Virus record (IMG/VR): IMGVR_UViG_3300033148_006239
Location: 41,325 to 105,324 of that record
Reading direction: 5' to 3' (one strand)
Source: a virus
Length of the DNA: 64,000 nucleotides
The stretch's first letter is position 1, and each line of letters opens with the position of its first letter. The translations under genes and the position numbers were made by a program. This document shows positions 1-64,000 of this stretch, in pieces. The notes below the pieces were generated by a model. It made no database searches and was not told the DNA's origin. It worked only from the letters and a program-made list of their open reading frames with translations.

Positions 1-437
1 TTAGTTATACCATATAACGAAGGATGATTTTCAAATGGTTTAGCGTTATTGCAAAATCCACCAATAGAAGTATCAAATTCAAATGGATCAAATATAGTTG
101 TGCTACTAAAATTGATTAAAGGTAAATCGAACTCTCTACATATTTTAATAATATTCTGTGTCCCTAAAACGTTTGTTAAAATAGTTTCTTCTTCATTGTT
201 TATACATCTATGTGTTCCTACAACTGCGGCTATATGTATAATAGCATCAGGTTTCCAATCATTAATTGCATTTCTCATTTGAGTATAATCTTTAACATTA
301 AAATGAAATCTTTCTGTATCTAATCCGTCATTATAAGTTGGATAAATATCTGGCATAATATCATATTTATGACTTAATTGTTTATCTAAGCCACGTGCAA
401 TCATTCCATTATGACCTGTTAAAAATAATTTATACAT
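1..437 (-). CDS. NAD-dependent epimerase/dehydratase (extended SDR), 3' end runs off the window
   Basis: Not in the ORF track. Manual translation from ATG at 437 gives MYKLFLTGHNGMIARGL...DAIIHIAAVVG...NVLGTQNII...FSSTTIF...SLYGIT(K). This contains the TGxxGxxA Rossmann motif, HxAA, NxxGT, SS and YxxxK. GAGG SD upstream. Confidence 0.9.
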   Translation of the reverse strand, partial: MYKLFLTGHNGMIARGLDKQLSHKYDIMPDIYPTYNDGLDTERFHFNVKDYTQMRNAINDWKPDAIIHIAAVVGTHRCINNEEETILTNVLGTQNIIKICREFDLPLINFSSTTIFDPFEFDTSIGGFCNNAKPFENHPSLYGIT

Positions 438-447
438 TTATTTTACC

Positions 448-954
448 TCAATCATCGTCGGGATATGCACCTCTAGAATACCAAGAATCATCATCAAGAT
501 CATTATTGATAACATCATTCATATCATCGCAAATCTCCATAAAATTTTGTAATTTATTAACACAAGCGTCAATATTATTTGCCGATGTATTTATTTCAAT
601 AAAATTCGCCTTTAGTTTATTGACAATATCAATGAAAATTGTTTGTTGATAAAATAGACTGCGTCTTGAAATAGTATGACACTTCATTTCATCAGTAGAT
701 TCAATTCTCTCAAGAAAATCATTCGCATTTACTATACATAAAACTATTACAGAATGTTTACAAATATCTTTACTTATTTTATATAAAATATCATTATCAT
801 GTTCTCTTTTATAAACTTTATTATATACTAATTGTGAAAGAATACTTCTGTCGTGACAAACATATTGATAATTATTTTGTAATTCAAAATTACGTCTCAA
901 TGTTGATTTACCTGACTTATCAATACCTTCAAAGAATATTAATTTACTCATCAA
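448..954 (-). CDS. dNMP kinase (thymidylate kinase family)
   Basis: IFFEGIDKSGKST P-loop and HDRSILSQLVY (DR motif). Confidence 0.85.
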   Translation of the reverse strand: MMSKLIFFEGIDKSGKSTLRRNFELQNNYQYVCHDRSILSQLVYNKVYKREHDNDILYKISKDICKHSVIVLCIVNANDFLERIESTDEMKCHTISRRSLFYQQTIFIDIVNKLKANFIEINTSANNIDACVNKLQNFMEICDDMNDVINNDLDDDSWYSRGAYPDDD

Positions 955-1162
955 TACCTGCTTTTGTTACTGTAAAATCTAATTTAATTTTTTCAATTAT
1001 TTTTTTTGGTTTAATATAAATATCAACATAATTATCATTATAATTATCGTTATCGTTTAAATCAAATTCAAAATCATCAATAATATCTTCATCTTTTAAG
1101 TCTTGCAAAAGCAATAATATTTTAATTTGAAATATAAAAAAATCAATATTAAATTTACTCAT
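944..1162 (-). CDS. small protein resembling the C-terminus of a tail sheath
   Basis: VDIYIKPKKIIEKIKLDFTVTKAG resembles the T4 gp18-type terminal motif DIYIKP..SI.FI.L.F..T..G. Confidence 0.45.
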   Translation of the reverse strand: MSKFNIDFFIFQIKILLLLQDLKDEDIIDDFEFDLNDNDNYNDNYVDIYIKPKKIIEKIKLDFTVTKAGIDE

Positions 1163-1733
1163 TAGTGTATGCCTTATAAAGAGTATCTAATATATGTTTA
1201 TAATCATCTACACTCATTCCACCATAAGATAAAACATAATTAGGATGATTTATTGGAAAAACAATTGCTTCTCTATCATTATATTCAAATATAGATTCTT
1301 TATATAATTCTGCATCAAAAAATTTAGCAACTTGTTTACCTAAAGGAACGATTACTTTTGGTTTTAAAATCTGTATTTCTTTTAATAGAAATCTATTACC
1401 ACATTTATTAATTAATCTTTCATCAATCTTATTATTTTTTGTACTGCATTTAACAATATTTGTTATTGTACATTCATTTAAATAATTGATCATTCTTAAA
1501 AATTCTAATCCAAAACCTCCATCAAAAGCAAACGTACCATATATCCCTCTAACATTTGATGGATTCATACCAACAAATAAGAAATTATTTCCTATATGTA
1601 ATCCTTTTAATTTACCAAACCCATATCTTATATCTTCTGTATTAAATTCTTCATCGCATAAATTTTTACATCGTTTACATGTGCATAATCCGTAATAAAG
1701 TTTGTGAATCTTACTTTTCATATTTACTTTCAT
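1155..1733 (-). CDS. uracil-DNA glycosylase, family 4/5-like
   Basis: N-terminal CxxC cluster, FVGMNPS, ITNIVKC, VIVPLGK and HPNY motifs. Confidence 0.85.
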   Translation of the reverse strand: MKVNMKSKIHKLYYGLCTCKRCKNLCDEEFNTEDIRYGFGKLKGLHIGNNFLFVGMNPSNVRGIYGTFAFDGGFGLEFLRMINYLNECTITNIVKCSTKNNKIDERLINKCGNRFLLKEIQILKPKVIVPLGKQVAKFFDAELYKESIFEYNDREAIVFPINHPNYVLSYGGMSVDDYKHILDTLYKAYTNE

Positions 1734-2707
1734 AAATTACTCATTATAGTATCAAAAGTAAAAAATGGAATAATAGTATCAATCTTTTTAATTCTTTCAA
1801 TATACATATTGTTATAAGGTGTTATTTTCAAATAAACATCTACAGGCATTGATTTTGCAATCTTAATTGCATTATCTGCATCGTCTTCGACAACAAAAGA
1901 TACATTTTTTAAATCTTTAATTATTCTATGCTCTTTCTTTTCATCCCAAAAAATCATATCAATAGGTAAATTATTACTTGTTATCCATTTTAAAGTATCA
2001 GAATAGATTCTACTATATTTATGATATGGTCGTGCAGTTATTAATACAGTTATATAATCTTTTTTATATAAATATTGTAAAAATTCCTTTGCTCCAGGAA
2101 CAAAATCCATTTCGGCTTTAACACCTGATTGTCTATATCTATCTTTTAATATTAATTGTACTTCTAAATCAAGATTTAAAAAATCATTAAAATCAATTAT
2201 TTTTTCATTAATAGAAACATTATCTAACATACCATAATTAGACATAATATTCGAATATTCATTAATCCATTTAATAAAAAAATCAGGCCAATCAGCAATA
2301 ACTCCATCAATGTCAATAACTGCAATCTTTTTATTTGAATCGATATTGTTTATAAATTTTTCTTGATTATACCTTGCTTCAACAACAGTTGTTTTATTTA
2401 AAAAATTCTTATAAAAATCTTCATCATTAATTCCCCACAAATTACACAACCCAACAAGAAACTTAAATATATCAATCAATTCTTCAGAAATATTTGATCT
2501 AATTATATCGCCATCAAATTTTCTATGCATTTTAAATGGCATTTCATGTAATAATTCACCTATTTCAGAATAAAGATGTAAACAAAATTCCTTAGACCAA
2601 AAAACTAACTCTTCTTCAGTTAAATTATTTATATCAAATCCTTTATCTTTAAAAACTTGATTATTAAAGTCAAGTTGTTTTTCCCAAATTTCTTTTAATT
2701 TATTCAT
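1730..2707 (-). CDS. fusion of an all-alpha dUTPase/MazG-like NTP pyrophosphatase and a HAD 5'(3')-deoxyribonucleotidase
   Basis: N-half has SEIGELL...EELIDIFKF. C-half has DIDGVIAD, ITARP and VEDD. Likely start MNKLKE at 2707. Confidence 0.8.
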   Translation of the reverse strand: MNKLKEIWEKQLDFNNQVFKDKGFDINNLTEEELVFWSKEFCLHLYSEIGELLHEMPFKMHRKFDGDIIRSNISEELIDIFKFLVGLCNLWGINDEDFYKNFLNKTTVVEARYNQEKFINNIDSNKKIAVIDIDGVIADWPDFFIKWINEYSNIMSNYGMLDNVSINEKIIDFNDFLNLDLEVQLILKDRYRQSGVKAEMDFVPGAKEFLQYLYKKDYITVLITARPYHKYSRIYSDTLKWITSNNLPIDMIFWDEKKEHRIIKDLKNVSFVVEDDADNAIKIAKSMPVDVYLKITPYNNMYIERIKKIDTIIPFFTFDTIMSNL

Positions 2708-3665
2708 TTCCCCACCCATAAGCCATAACGTGATCAACAAAATCTTTTAACTTATCACACAATGTGTGAAACTGTATAGAATGATCCCATGACGCATATC
2801 TACCAAAACATTTTATATCACCAATATGATCTAAACAATGATTCTCTAAAAAATAGCCATACTTTAACGTACCATATTGTAATATACCACTAGACATAAA
2901 AATCTTTTTAAGTATACAGACATTATCTCGATCAATTGATTCATACGTAATTGTTTTATCTTTATTATCTGTAACTCTTATAAAAGGAATATCTTTATCA
3001 GCATAATATATATAATCATAATCGTTAAACATCAAACCATTTATTTTAACAAAATATTTGCTTTTATATTCATATTTAAAATAAGGATTTACATCAAATA
3101 ATTTACAAAAATCAGGAGCAGGAATTGTATTAATAATATATTCATGACTAGTTCTAATTGAATAATTATTATCTAAATGAATTGCAACGTGATTGTTATC
3201 ATAATAGTCAACACGTTCAATTAAACTGTTATAATATGTAGTACCTTGAGACCACAAAAATCTACAAATTGTTTCAATAAATTCTTTCTGTGAAAAATCA
3301 AAATATTCAAAATTATTACCTCCCGACGCGGTACTATCATAGTGTTTTCCATCTCGTGTAATTCTTGAATACTCTAATAAAAATTCTTTTGTTGCATAAT
3401 CTTTAATTTCATCATTGTAACAGAAACCAATGTTTGTCTTTTTAACATTTTGCTTGATATTAAATTGTCTTAAAATCTTTTCTACTTCATCAGAAACATG
3501 TAAATATCTCGGACCAAAAGCGTTCTCATATTGACCATATAATTTTCCAATTATAGTTACATTACAATTGAGATATTGTTTTAAATAATAAGCCGTTAAT
3601 AGTGCTGCAGGACCAGCACCAATAATAATTATATCATTCATAATTAATTTCTTATCAATGGGCAT
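2700..3665 (-). CDS. FAD-dependent oxidoreductase, UDP-galactopyranose mutase-like
   Basis: IIIGAGPAAL dinucleotide-binding motif, GPRYLH, INTIP and C-terminal GRYASW. Confidence 0.7.
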   Translation of the reverse strand: MPIDKKLIMNDIIIIGAGPAALLTAYYLKQYLNCNVTIIGKLYGQYENAFGPRYLHVSDEVEKILRQFNIKQNVKKTNIGFCYNDEIKDYATKEFLLEYSRITRDGKHYDSTASGGNNFEYFDFSQKEFIETICRFLWSQGTTYYNSLIERVDYYDNNHVAIHLDNNYSIRTSHEYIINTIPAPDFCKLFDVNPYFKYEYKSKYFVKINGLMFNDYDYIYYADKDIPFIRVTDNKDKTITYESIDRDNVCILKKIFMSSGILQYGTLKYGYFLENHCLDHIGDIKCFGRYASWDHSIQFHTLCDKLKDFVDHVMAYGWGNE

Positions 3666-4283: not shown

Positions 4284-5420
4284 TTAAATATCAATACCAG
4301 TTTCAAGTTTCACAAATTCAACTTCTGATTTTTTTTCAAGTTTTTTATGATCTCTCTTAATTGAATTAACTAATTTAATCATTGCTTTACTCTTCTTTAA
4401 TCCTGCACAAATCATATACCCAGTAATTTTATCGACATTACTAGAATAGAAATAACTAACATACGAATTTGGAGTTCGAGTCATCACTTCAATTCTTTTA
4501 GAAATTAATTCTGCTTTTGTATTCATTGTATGTTTATCACTTCCCTTAGGTAAGACAATTGCCAATATATAATTCGTTGTTGTATTTATATCAAATGATC
4601 CATAATACATTGATTCTGTATTTAATTTACGTATAAACTCATCATCAATACCTTCATCCAATTGAAAATATCTGAAATCAACAAACCCAGAATTTTTATT
4701 ATAAAGTACCCTTTTTAAATCAGACATATCTATATTCGCATTATTACCACTTAAAAAGTCATAATTTGATTTAAATGTAAAATCATAAAACATTTTTAAA
4801 GGATTAATAATGTGATAATTAATTCTATCATAATGTGTTTTCTTCATTTTAAATCTATCATATAGTAATTGATTATCCGCAAGAATAACATTGACATAAT
4901 CAATATCTTTCAAAAAGATATTTTCAATAAACCAATTAATTAATTTTATTGTATTGTTTTTTCTCTTAATACCTTCATTCTTTTTTGGAGTTGAAATAAT
5001 TACTAATATTTTTTTATTTAATTCAACCAATAGCTCAACAATAACTCTTGTAATTCCATTTCCACTACCCCCACCACCTGATGTATAAATAATTATATAT
5101 TCATCATCATCAACAATTCTTGGACCGCATATTTCTCCATCGACATCTTCATATTTTTCAAATAAAAATTTATTTATTTTATCAATCTTATTTCTAGCTA
5201 TCATTTCACCTTTATCAGGATCATTTCCAGTTCCATCTACACCTAAAAGCATAACATCTTCAATACTAAATAATTTGATATTATCAACTGCAGTATTAGA
5301 TACAACAGTTTTTGTATTTTTAAAAAATTTACTATGTTGCTTTGCAAGCATAGTCCCACATTGACCATTACCAAATATTTTATCACTTATGGTTAAATCT
5401 AAAAACTGTTCCATTTCCAT
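4284..5420 (-). CDS. tubulin/FtsZ-superfamily GTPase (TubZ/PhuZ-like)
   Basis: GNGQCG (T1), DGTGNDPDKG (T3), SGGGGSGNG (signature loop), DNQLL and DMSDL (T7). Confidence 0.85.
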   Translation of the reverse strand: MEMEQFLDLTISDKIFGNGQCGTMLAKQHSKFFKNTKTVVSNTAVDNIKLFSIEDVMLLGVDGTGNDPDKGEMIARNKIDKINKFLFEKYEDVDGEICGPRIVDDDEYIIIYTSGGGGSGNGITRVIVELLVELNKKILVIISTPKKNEGIKRKNNTIKLINWFIENIFLKDIDYVNVILADNQLLYDRFKMKKTHYDRINYHIINPLKMFYDFTFKSNYDFLSGNNANIDMSDLKRVLYNKNSGFVDFRYFQLDEGIDDEFIRKLNTESMYYGSFDINTTTNYILAIVLPKGSDKHTMNTKAELISKRIEVMTRTPNSYVSYFYSSNVDKITGYMICAGLKKSKAMIKLVNSIKRDHKKLEKKSEVEFVKLETGIDI

Positions 5421-41237: not shown

Positions 41238-41614
41238 TAATTATCTTCTTTTTTCTTCTTTTTCTTCTTGTCAGAAGATTTATTCTCACTAGTAGATTTA
41301 CTTCCACTAGAAGATTCTATTAATTGTTTAACACGTTTTTTATCATTAATATGTTCTATAAAAAAATCTTTTGCAGATTTTTCATAAAACTTTTCTAATT
41401 CTTGTAAACTAACTTTTTGAGGTTTATTAAACAATGGCACATTTTTAGTTTTATAAAATTCACCAAAGTCTAATATGTATTTAACTCCTCGATTAAATCT
41501 GCCTGCAGGAGCATTTGGATTTGTCAAAGAATTAACTCTCAAAGTAACTATTACAAATTTTTCAAATTTAGGCAGTTTATTACCTAATATAACTGGCATA
41601 CATTTACCTAACAT
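41237..41614 (-). CDS. hypothetical protein after the capsid gene
   Basis: 125 aa with SD; basic tail. Confidence 0.55.
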   Translation of the reverse strand: MLGKCMPVILGNKLPKFEKFVIVTLRVNSLTNPNAPAGRFNRGVKYILDFGEFYKTKNVPLFNKPQKVSLQELEKFYEKSAKDFFIEHINDKKRVKQLIESSSGSKSTSENKSSDKKKKKKKEDN

Positions 41615-61764: not shown

Positions 61765-61848
61765 CGTTTTTATTTGCACTTCTCAATTTTTTATAATTTT
61801 ACATATTATAAAGGAAGAAAATGTTTTCATTTTGTCGAGTACTACTCG

Positions 61849-61993
61849 ATATTTCAACAATTTTAAAAATGAACGGGAGGTTCGGTTGTCTTGATTATGT
61901 TAAGATTTTCAAATGTGTCATACTTAATATTTCAACAATTTTAAAAATGAACGTGTGAAACTTAATATTTCAGCAATTTTAAAAATGAACGTG
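61849..61993. repeat. three 27-bp direct repeats (iteron-like)
   Basis: atatttca(a/g)caattttaaaaatgaacg at 61849, 61927 and 61965; copies 2 and 3 extend to 34 bp. Confidence 0.9.
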
Positions 61994-62055
61994 ATATGGG
62001 GGAAGAGGGGTGGGTAAGTAATTATATAAATATATATATAACCACCATATAGGGG

Positions 62056-62701
62056 TTTTTTAAATTAAAATTTTTTAATTATATATATATTAATAATTTA
62101 TATAATATTAATTATTTAATTATTTAATTATATATATAATAATAATTTATATAAATATATAATATTATTATAATTATATTAATAATTTATAATATTAATT
62201 AAATTAATAATTTAAAATTATTTAATTATTATATATTTATATAATAATTAAATAATATAAATATAATTATATATATAATATATATTTATATAATAAATAA
62301 TTTTAAATTAATTAAATATATAATATATAATAACTTATATAATAATTAAATAATATAAATATAATTATATATATAATATATAATATATAAAAATAATTTT
62401 TATAAATATATATATATTAATAATTAAATAATAATAATATAATTTATTATATATTATATATTTATAAAAATTATTAAATATATTTATATAAATTATTAAA
62501 TAATAATAAATAATAAATAATATAATATATATTAATATAATTAATAATATAATATATATTTATATAATAATAAATATTAAATAATATAAATTATTATATA
62601 TATATAATTTATAAATATAATTAATTATATATATATAAATTATTAATAATATTATAATTATAAAATAAAAAATTATTTATTATATAATTATAATAAAAAT
62701 T
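62056..62701. other. almost pure A/T tract
   Basis: About 645 bp with a single C (62334) and no G; includes a 48-bp direct repeat at 62237 and 62335. Confidence 0.95.
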
Positions 62702-63270
62702 CCCCACAAAAAATAATTTTTAACCAACTTAATTTATATCAAACCAATAACTACTCTCAAACCTTTTTTATACCATCATCTCACAACTATTATATATTAT
62801 CTTATAATCTTAAAAAAAAATTTTTTTCATCTCTCTCTCTACATATCTTACTTATATACTCCCCATATAAAATTAATATCTACACTCTAAACATTAACAC
62901 CCCTTATATCATCTCAAACACCTCTACAATCAATCTTTCTCTACTCCCTATACTTTACCCCTACCCTATAATTAACTACTCTTAAAATCAATCCTCATCC
63001 AATCTCAAACATATTAACATATTAACAACTCTTCATATATCATCTCTATTTAAAAAAAATTTTTTTCATTTTTTATCAAAAAAATAAAATATAATATTTC
63101 TTTAATCTACACACCAACTTCTCTTATATACTCCCTATAAAAAATTAATATCTACACACCATTAACTATATCAAAACATTTAAAAACATTAATCTACACA
63201 CCAACAATTTTAAACAAAAAAAAATATATATCATATTTCTACAATATATATTTTATCCTTCTCCCACCAT
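62702..63270. repeat. G-less non-coding region with direct repeats
   Basis: cttatatactccc...attaatatctacac twice (~62851, ~63123); aaaaaaatttttttcat twice; aatctacacaccaac twice. Confidence 0.7.
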
Positions 63271-63276
63271 CCTAAT

Positions 63277-63402
63277 CTAAAATATATTTATCTTTATTTC
63301 CTCATCTCCCATTATACACTTACTTATCACAATCACTATATTTTCAAATCTTAACACTATCACTTCACACATCTCTACTTCATCAAAATAATTTTCTATC
63401 AT
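63277..63402 (-). CDS. cytosine-free small protein (41 aa)
   Basis: GGAGG SD, then MIENYFDEVEMCEVIVLRFENIVIVISKCIMGDEEIKINIF; no C in the coding strand; not in the track. Confidence 0.55.
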   Translation of the reverse strand: MIENYFDEVEMCEVIVLRFENIVIVISKCIMGDEEIKINIF

Positions 63403-63472
63403 ATTTACCTCCAATAAATATTTTAATCTACACAAACATTACTTTATTTTTCCCACCAACCCACCCCATAAA

Positions 63473-63898
63473 TTATTTATCACCTTCCTTTTCATTCATA
63501 TTTTTTAACTCTTCTTTCATCCTTACAATCTCTTTCTCTAATCTTTCTTTCCTTAACTCTCCACTTACTCCCCCCAACTCTCTTAAATAACTATTATCTA
63601 CACCTTTTTCAATATTATTTATATAATATAAATAATAATTACTACTTCTATAAACATTCCATTCTTCATTAAACAAACTTTCACACAATTCTTTCTTATC
63701 CTTCCCATCTTTCAACCCTTTAATTAAATATTCATACACATATTTAATCTTCACTTTATCCAACTTATCTTTACTCCCACTCACTCCCTTATCCTTCACA
63801 ATCACTTTTTCTTTCAATTCTTTTACTTCTTTCTCTAATTCTTTCACTACTACACTCTTTTCTAAATCACTTTTTAAAACCTTATCATTCTTTTTCAT
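63473..63898 (-). CDS. cytosine-free protein (141 aa, charged/helical)
   Basis: GGAGG-AAAAT-ATG start at 63898; no C in the coding strand; the protein lacks Ala, Pro, Thr, Gln and His. Confidence 0.8.
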   Translation of the reverse strand: MKKNDKVLKSDLEKSVVVKELEKEVKELKEKVIVKDKGVSGSKDKLDKVKIKYVYEYLIKGLKDGKDKKELCESLFNEEWNVYRSSNYYLYYINNIEKGVDNSYLRELGGVSGELRKERLEKEIVRMKEELKNMNEKEGDK

Positions 63899-63924
63899 AT
63901 TTTCCTCCAAAACATTTTAAATCC

Positions 63925-63999
63925 TCACTTTATCCCATCACACCCACAATCAAATCCTTTTTTTAACCTCCATCCATAAACATAATAAAACATATTAAA
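63925..63999 (-). CDS. possible 3' end of another cytosine-free ORF
   Basis: Open frame ...FNMFYYVYGWRLKKGFDCGCDGIK* entering from the window edge. Confidence 0.3.
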   Translation of the reverse strand, partial: FNMFYYVYGWRLKKGFDCGCDGIK

Positions 64000-64000
64000 A

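Follow-up and report, generated by a model that had tools for sequence, protein, structure and literature searches.

A tract at the end of a 64,000-nt stretch of viral DNA lacks one base altogether over more than 2 kb. The stretch (positions 41,325 to 105,324 of IMG/VR record IMGVR_UViG_3300033148_006239; the window, below) forms the last 64 kb of a 105,324-bp phage genome. A short block of its genes (1.7-11.3 kb) reads rightward, and an array of 94 kb reads leftward. The tract heads the leftward array, with 1.2 kb separating it from where the rightward block begins. The final G on the + strand is at position 62055; from 62056 to 64000 there is none, and the minus strand, which codes for the proteins here, is correspondingly without C. 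We conclude that the tract is a natural, selected, strand-asymmetric control region. As to its cause, an explanation centred on the transcription termination factor Rho is the best supported, and we put it forward tentatively, as something short of probable.

The missing base does not return at the end of the record. The first 114 nt of the record are identical to its last 114 nt, and the G-less run passes through this repeat and stops only at genome position 485 (L091:115-485). The full tract is thus 2,316 nt long, with 945 A, 937 T, 434 C and 0 G on the + strand. By comparison, the runner-up G-less run is 89 nt within the window and 90 nt genome-wide. Given 10.8% C on coding strands, a run of this length has a chance of about 0.89^2316. 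As far as the letters go, the observation is solid: it is statistically overwhelming and very unusual, and a literature search brought up no report of a natural phage tract that is free of cytosine or of guanine. The genome is known from a single metagenomic record, and base counts were taken from the assembled letters.

An earlier analysis that used only the letters of the window (the sequence-only reading) had placed the last G at 62055, with none from 62056 to 64000 and abundant C from 62702 onward, and our base counts agree on every point. The consequences that it drew, that the tract can hold no CpG or GpC and no palindrome containing G or C, and that its mRNA is free of C, follow directly from the composition.

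Composition and layout of the tract

The tract is mainly a non-coding control region. Only 552 nt (24%) is coding, in two open reading frames (ORFs) of 141 and 41 codons that both lie on the minus strand, and the remaining 76% is non-coding. The sequence-only reading had described a gene-carrying segment; the ORFs are real, and the description as a block of genes is not borne out. By composition the tract consists of 646 nt of nearly pure A/T, followed by 1,670 nt of A, C and T in which C makes up 26%. The features of the tract within the window are as follows.

62056-64000, no strand assigned: the part of the tract in the window, without G on the + strand and without C on the minus strand (base counts, run lengths)
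62056-62701, no strand assigned: A/T block of 646 bp, with 342 A, 303 T, 1 C and 0 G (base counts)
62702-63276, minus strand: non-coding A/G/T segment of 575 nt (repeat search, families D3, D5, D6, D7 and D9; motif map; self-alignment)
63277-63402, minus strand: 41-codon ORF (GGAGG, 5-nt spacer, ATG), with a G-rich block after it
63473-63898, minus strand: 141-codon ORF with GGAGG, a 5-nt spacer and ATG, encoding a K/E-rich, predicted helical orphan protein
63887-64000, no strand assigned: right copy of the 114-bp direct terminal repeat, equal to genome 1-114 (identity; IMG/VR class)

The A/T block, whose single C is at 62334, cannot hold a start codon. It is non-repetitive and rich in TA steps, and homopolymer runs of at least 4 are depleted (11, with about 39 expected). 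We rejected a tandem or slippage array as its origin: the Tandem Repeats Finder (TRF) score of 481 lies within the range of first-order random two-letter sequence (410 +/- 142). The block is the least stable duplex of the genome, at -163 kcal/mol per 200 bp against a mean of -232 +/- 12, a distance of about 6 standard deviations. Its role, we infer, is most likely that of a spacer that melts readily or of an unwinding element.

A 35-nt element occurs twice in the adjoining A/G/T segment (62702-63276), along with two A7-8/T8-9 palindromes, several G-runs and five copies of GTGTAGAT(T/A). In the motif map, 10 of the 20 copies in the genome fall within the tract. ATG opens both palindromes (63049-63069 and 62810-62830, minus strand), which can be read as the mini-ORFs MKKIFFK and MKKIFF. 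Near genome position 245 there is a third palindrome, which has no ATG. The ATG-led palindromes are candidates for leader peptides, UP-like elements or weak A-U terminators. At the other side of the ORFs, the roughly 460 nt of the tract upstream of them hold G-run clusters and three copies of GTGAAGATT.

Conventional signals are scarce in this region. Generic sigma-70 promoter scans of the tract did no better than on shuffled sequence, Rfam gave nothing in the tract, and no terminator was found in or beside it. A suspected terminator just upstream of genome position 485 and possible structures at the exit from the tract were rejected, as they folded no better than shuffles. In RNA folding, the C-free RNA of the tract hardly folds.

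Both ORFs have the initiation signals claimed by the sequence-only reading, which had reported a GGAGG Shine-Dalgarno (SD) sequence, a second SD-led ORF of 41 codons and five residues missing from the longer product; inspection of the ORFs confirmed all three. The ribosome-binding site (RBS) and start of the 141-codon ORF read GGAGGAAAATATG. This exact 13-mer occurs only three times elsewhere in the genome, always at genes of the rightward block, which indicates that the tract belongs to this phage. The corresponding stretch of the 41-codon ORF is GGAGGTAAATATG. Quadruplex-capable G-rich blocks lie immediately 3' of both stop codons, and the one directly after the stop of the 141-codon ORF is GGGGTGGGTTGGTGGG.

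The 141-aa protein contains no Ala, Pro, Thr, Gln or His, residues that jointly make up 17% of the phage proteome. The sequence-only reading had argued that its gene is under selection, and two results support this. First, open frames on the C-free strand reach 147 codons, more than in any of 2,000 shuffles of the C-free sequence (mean 45, maximum 98). Second, given the amino-acid sequence and the codon usage of the genome, the probability that all codons would be C-free is 1e-10. By these measures the ORF is a real coding sequence, and the gene may have arisen inside the three-letter region.

The protein is an orphan. It belongs to no Pfam or PHROG family; it matched only itself among 5.8 billion clustered proteins and 1.84 billion representatives (the latter searched exhaustively), and it had no relative in JGI metagenome contigs and no usable neighbour in a language-model atlas (best score 0.75). 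The exact 141-aa protein is on record from three contigs. AlphaFold2, run on the single sequence, predicts helices throughout with low confidence (pLDDT 55). Neither the 141-aa nor the 41-aa product has a family, a homolog or a confident fold, and neither is a recognisable anti-defence or host-takeover protein.

The base that is missing was not turned into T. On the minus strand, the part of the tract outside the A/T block has 36.1% T, 25.9% G and 0% C. C-to-T conversion would predict 43.3% T and 17.2% G; G is thus about 9 points up and T is not inflated, indicating that G has taken the place of C, with the overall G+C preserved. In the 141-codon ORF, T (26.8%) is below that of average genes. 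Furthermore, when phage genes of 100-200 codons were converted from C to T in silico, only 1 of 50 stayed open. We therefore reject ordinary sequence converted from C to T, whether by bisulfite-like treatment or by a deaminase, as the source of the tract.

A proposed role of Rho in one-way transcription

We tentatively favour the view that the tract works as a unit transcribed in one direction only, which is proof against Rho, forms no hairpins and ends at a patch where Rho can load. Rho reads CC and UC dinucleotides, and purine-rich sense strands shield genes from Rho in B. subtilis (PMC13323073). The authors of that work extend the purine bias of sense strands to a barrier against phages (Nat Microbiol 2026, PMC13323073). 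In vitro, Rho of T. thermophilus releases RNA from a G-less template and is deficient on a C-less one (PMC9908020). The two strands of the tract would present Rho with these two situations in opposite directions. Two further features, at the left edge of the tract, are needed here.

61869-62055, minus strand: exit patch, with the strongest excess of C over G for leftward RNA in the 94-kb array (C-minus-G windows)
61834-61987, no strand assigned: three direct repeats of ~38 nt with core TTCAACAATTTTAAAAATGAACG, adjoining the A/T block (repeat family D2, TRF period 38)

In the mechanism that we envisage, host RNA polymerase would make leftward transcripts of the tract that are free of C. We assign this to the host enzyme because the phage has a sigma factor and no phage RNA polymerase was found among the proteins scanned. 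Three quarters of the leftward RNA would be untranslated and would barely fold, which would normally make it an ideal target for Rho. Without C, however, the RNA would have no dinucleotide of a pyrimidine followed by C (YC), and Rho would have nothing to bind. There would be no G-C pairs and thus no ordinary hairpin terminator, so that transcription started in the tract would run on. RNA made in the rightward direction, G-free and with 26% C, would be the best possible substrate for Rho, and passage would be one way only. At the C-rich, G-poor exit patch Rho could load, and this would either close the unit or gate read-through to the downstream genes.

Several features of the sequence are as this mechanism would have them. 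Leftward RNA of the tract has 0 YC, and rightward RNA has ~17 YC per 100 nt and no G. When C minus G was counted per 150 nt for rightward RNA, the top four windows of the genome all fell in the tract (+46 to +55, against 9.4 +/- 8.9). For leftward RNA, the maximum of the array is at the exit from the tract (~61869-62018), with +23 against -10.5 +/- 6.4, or about 5 standard deviations; the next window has +15. Counted per 200 nt, the exit patch has 37 C and 16 G; CCCC and CCCACCCCTCTTCCCCC occur in it, and it shares sequence with the three 38-nt direct repeats. The polarity of the genes agrees as well, as both SD-led ORFs are on the C-free strand. If Rho is the agent, the non-coding parts would be as strictly C-free as the ORFs because Rho attacks untranslated, unfolded RNA, and G would be raised because removing C and adding G both lower the score of an RNA as a Rho substrate.

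Avoidance of C also extends, in a milder form, over the genes that the tract heads. At silent sites of the leftward array (11.6-103 kb), C occupies 4.7% of third codon positions (C3) and G 9.1% (G3). The spacers of the array have 8.6% C and 16.7% G, and its sense strand overall has 10.4% C, 17.3% G and 57% purines. The rightward block (1.7-11.3 kb) shows no such avoidance. Between the leftward and rightward genes, C3 differs (4.7% vs 10.3%) and so does T3 (44.9% vs 39.6%), with G3 and A3 unchanged. This exchange of C3 for T3 could reflect a bias due to selection, or it could be a deamination-like signature specific to a strand or a block.

Other observations weigh against Rho as the whole explanation. 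C is missing from the tract after purines too, whereas a pure reader of YC predicts a weaker ban on AC and GC; at silent sites of the array as well, avoidance is equally strong after purines and pyrimidines. Avoidance of C alone leaves the missing G of the A/T block unexplained. The rightward, early-type block shares its RBS class with the genes of the tract yet does not avoid C, so that avoidance of C is no general property of early genes here. Three direct repeats coincide in part with the exit patch and may be present for another reason. With promoter scans no better than shuffles, no start or end of a transcript has been assigned in the tract. None of the relatives that we examined carries such a tract, and conservation cannot be used as evidence. 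Lastly, the mechanism presumes a host that has Rho. We infer both that Rho is the agent and that the tract is transcribed leftward in the way described above.

A broader proposal can be built on the same mechanism. C-free RNA might be a general, undescribed counter of phages to policing by Rho, and the tract might be one such device, composed of a termination-proof, one-way leader that allows neither hairpins nor loading of Rho, a timed Rho-loading exit gate and the A/T block. At the A/T block, a persistent RNA-DNA hybrid immune to Rho would prime replication, or transcription would pull the end of the genome into the cell. We consider a counter of this generality doubtful.

Alternative explanations

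The alternative that survives best is that the tract is an R-loop-primed origin of replication, which we think unlikely as the cause of the missing base. G-rich, C-free RNA would hybridise to its C-rich template and enter the 646-bp A/T block, where melting would let the phage helicase load. Rho, which is an RNA-DNA helicase, could not load on the C-free RNA to clear the hybrid. An origin of this kind is therefore compatible with the explanation by Rho and may be its purpose. The A/T block, as the least stable duplex of the genome by about 6 standard deviations, would suit an unwinding element, and repeats lie on both sides of the tract, the three 38-nt repeats at one end and a cluster of GAAATGA type at genome 860-1010 at the other. 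There are G-run clusters at genome 385-300 and after both ORFs. The phage encodes DnaB, a helicase loader, DnaG and DnaE, with no recognisable initiator among the proteins scanned. In addition, the two gene arrays diverge at the tract, and the cumulative GC skew turns there as well. However, the turning points of the skew coincide with switches in gene orientation and are thus uninformative. No DnaA-box cluster was found, hybrids are weak in pure A/T DNA, and 1.7 kb of C-free sequence with two ORFs far exceeds what known R-loop origins need. The unwinding element is clear from duplex stability, but promoter scans and the motif map assigned no promoter upstream of it. No relative that we examined has the feature, and origin activity is putative.

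The repeats next to the tract might have roles of their own. The three 38-nt direct repeats could be iterons or operators; on the + strand beside them there are G-runs (GGGGGAAGAGGGGTGGG). The second cluster, of short GAAATGA(C/G)-type repeats at L091:860-1010, falls in the 1.2 kb that separate the tract from the rightward block; it forms a second iteron-like array and is a candidate for an origin or a partition site.

Agents other than Rho might also read C in newly made RNA or depend on its supply. For example, C could be made costly by the chain-terminating viperin product ddhCTP, by a shortage of CTP, by C-dependent endoribonucleases of the MazF type, or by cytosine deaminases that act on RNA or on a displaced DNA strand. 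A total ban that is independent of context suits an agent that makes every single C costly, and the mRNA of the tract, being free of C, offers no cleavage motif that contains C. No such system is tied to this phage or its host, though, and such systems are sporadic. The raised G, the one-way asymmetry and the C-rich exit patch would all be left unexplained, and we regard agents of this kind as rather improbable.

We give a similarly low weight to the possibility that the tract is the first-injected end of the genome. The sequence-only reading had proposed a pre-early, first-injected region and had asked whether the tract coincides with a terminal repeat. The two do coincide: the 114-bp repeat is inside the tract, where a random break point would land 2.2% of the time (2,316/105,210 bp). 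IMG/VR classes the record as "direct terminal repeats" and 100% complete, and a length of 114, which is even, appears to match no common assembler k-mer. If the repeat is truly terminal, both physical ends of the genome would lie in the tract, the entering DNA would be without G- or C-containing palindromes, and the first gene might serve anti-defence or takeover. The ORFs read inward from the right end, and the exact RBS 13-mer of the 141-codon ORF is common to three early-type genes of the rightward block. Nevertheless, the physical ends are putative. The repeat spans the RBS and the first four codons of the 141-codon ORF, which would be unusual for a real terminal repeat, and no complete promoter is present in the 102 nt that separate the ATG of that ORF from the putative right end. 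Purine-only asymmetric sites and A/T-only palindromes are still abundant in the tract, the 141-aa protein is unlike any known anti-restriction protein, and avoiding restriction would not need a total ban on one base.

The sequence-only reading had also offered an alternative based on modified DNA, in which the tract lets polymerase read early genes when the rest of the genome carries a bulky modified C or G. The operon that it cited argues against this. The module (window 1-3665 and L093:2-1761) encodes ThyX, a dTMP-kinase-like protein, a dUTPase/NT5C fusion, a UDG-like protein, an SDR epimerase, a flavoprotein and a methyltransferase. This content suggests hypermodified thymidine or uracil rather than modified C or G, and no dCMP hydroxymethylase or 7-deazaguanine genes were found among the proteins scanned. 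Both strands of the tract are rich in T, and a chemistry of thymidine or uracil would not call for a template cleared of G or C.

Mutational decay without selection is disfavoured, and we consider it very improbable. In this scenario, the minus strand (and both strands in the A/T block) would often be single-stranded, and C would deaminate to uracil and be lost. The difference between the leftward array and the rightward block is indeed a pure shift from C3 to T3, and loss of C from both strands would yield pure A/T. But decay would have inflated T in the tract, where instead G is raised by 9 points, and the 141-codon ORF has less T than the average of genes. Only 1 in 50 comparable genes survives C-to-T conversion open, and the depletion of homopolymer runs in the A/T block points to selection.

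An artefact, in which the assembly is chimeric or reads altered by bisulfite-like conversion were merged into the phage contig, is the least credible explanation: a single metagenomic record would leave room for one, but the composition is unlike conversion, ordinary phage DNA adjoins the tract on both sides, the tract ORF carries the phage's own RBS 13-mer, the identical 141-aa protein is recorded from three contigs, and the tract has repeated motifs and SD-led ORFs that are open beyond chance.

Genome context, relatives and comparison with known systems

The phage is tailed and only distantly related to known phages. Its terminase, portal and DnaE are at most 30% identical to those of known phages, and phages of Bacillus and of the human gut are among the best matches; among cultured phages, the nearest are for the most part those of Bacillus. 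Beside the proteins named above, it encodes RecA, SbcCD, a ligase, a class II ribonucleotide reductase with an intein, and a tubulin-like protein. The reductase gene (L092:715-5214, minus strand) is split by the intein, which carries an HNH endonuclease. The gene for the tubulin/FtsZ-family GTPase (window 4284-5420, minus strand) adjoins the sigma factor gene, and its product may act in partition or positioning in the manner of TubZ or PhuZ. There are no tRNA genes in the window. Just upstream of the first rightward gene, a long hairpin with strong structure is found at L091:1800-1918 (+ strand). A sub-threshold Rfam match of this hairpin to MIR474, the precursor of a plant microRNA (32 bits, with a threshold of 48), was dismissed, as it is certainly not a miRNA.

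From the relatives that could be found, the tract does not appear to be a feature of a wider clade. Cultured phages gave no DNA match to the tract or to 20 kb of the window, and an exact 32-mer from the tract had no match in viral contigs. A search of viral contigs with the terminase as a single protein found no relative. A terminase profile found 80 distant viral loci with 29-41% identity, and in the 983 kb of these loci there was no run of at least 150 nt without one base. Five whole records of 95-112 kb had no G-less or C-less run of 78 nt. As a positive control, the same run pattern gave 2,325 matches in the phage's own record. Relatives of the terminase in bacterial genomes are distant and taxonomically scattered, and for this reason we infer no host from them.

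Some of the distant viral relatives have short runs of a similar kind. Non-coding runs of 100-130 nt that lack G or C and are rich in the complement occur at L007:302-406, L043:7498-7629 and L051:5313-5415. Clear significance is reached by the polypyrimidine run in L007. The L043 and L051 runs, free of C and rich in G, resemble the non-coding parts of the tract and are not significant after correction for multiple testing.

If the explanation by Rho is true, the tract would be the cleanest natural case of a region recoded at the level of the alphabet, in which one base is banned and the proteins pay with five amino acids. The virus would have pushed a newly described, Rho-avoiding gene composition to its absolute limit. 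Long runs free of a single base would then be a simple signature for regions that escape transcription surveillance, and the tract would offer a model for designing units of transcription that are termination-proof or one-way. Should the agent be another than Rho, so complete a ban would point to a factor, not yet known, that reads single cytosines in nascent RNA.

Known systems share parts of this design. Origins that are activated by a transcript include oriF and oriG of T4, the primary origin of T7 and RNA II of ColE1, and there are small ORFs within the T7 origin transcripts. The tract resembles these origins in that transcription would run toward an A/T-rich element, with G-rich RNA over a C-rich template and with small ORFs. 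It differs from them in its 646 bp of pure A/T and in lacking a base on the kilobase scale, and any origin activity here is putative. To our knowledge, unwinding elements are tens of bp long rather than pure A/T for 646 bp, and none has been reported to lack a base over kilobases. The leading ends of some phage genomes are also specialised, as in the first-step-transfer region of T5 and the left end of T7 with gene 0.3 (ocr), where particular sites are avoided and not a whole base. Like these ends, the tract possibly is at a terminal repeat, has small genes that read inward and is devoid of restriction sites of the kinds that need G or C on both strands. Unlike them, it avoids a whole base, its ends are putative, and its protein is not similar to those of the Ocr or Ard type.

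Recoding against an RNA-directed factor has been done artificially. mRNAs that are made ACA-less escape MazF, and this is the basis of a single-protein production system (reviews). In both cases a message is recoded such that an RNA-directed factor finds no target; however, the artificial mRNAs drop one trinucleotide by synonymous changes, and the tract drops a whole base, non-coding RNA included.

A close natural parallel to the proposed Rho-proof unit is the Rho-avoiding bias of gene composition in bacteria with runaway transcription (PMC13323073). As in that bias, the sense strand here is C-poor and G-rich and the antisense strand the reverse, and the pattern extends through the array at silent sites and spacers. 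The published bias is statistical, with 54% purines, whereas the ban in the tract is absolute over 2.3 kb. The tract also differs in being mostly non-coding RNA, in the loss of five amino acids and in the C-rich patch at its end, and its dependence on Rho is a proposal. The synthetic G-less and C-less cassettes transcribed in vitro (PMC9908020) have the same three-letter design, and the two strands of the tract match the two templates. Those cassettes are laboratory constructs of ~100 bp, whereas the tract is natural, 2.3 kb long and carries genes.

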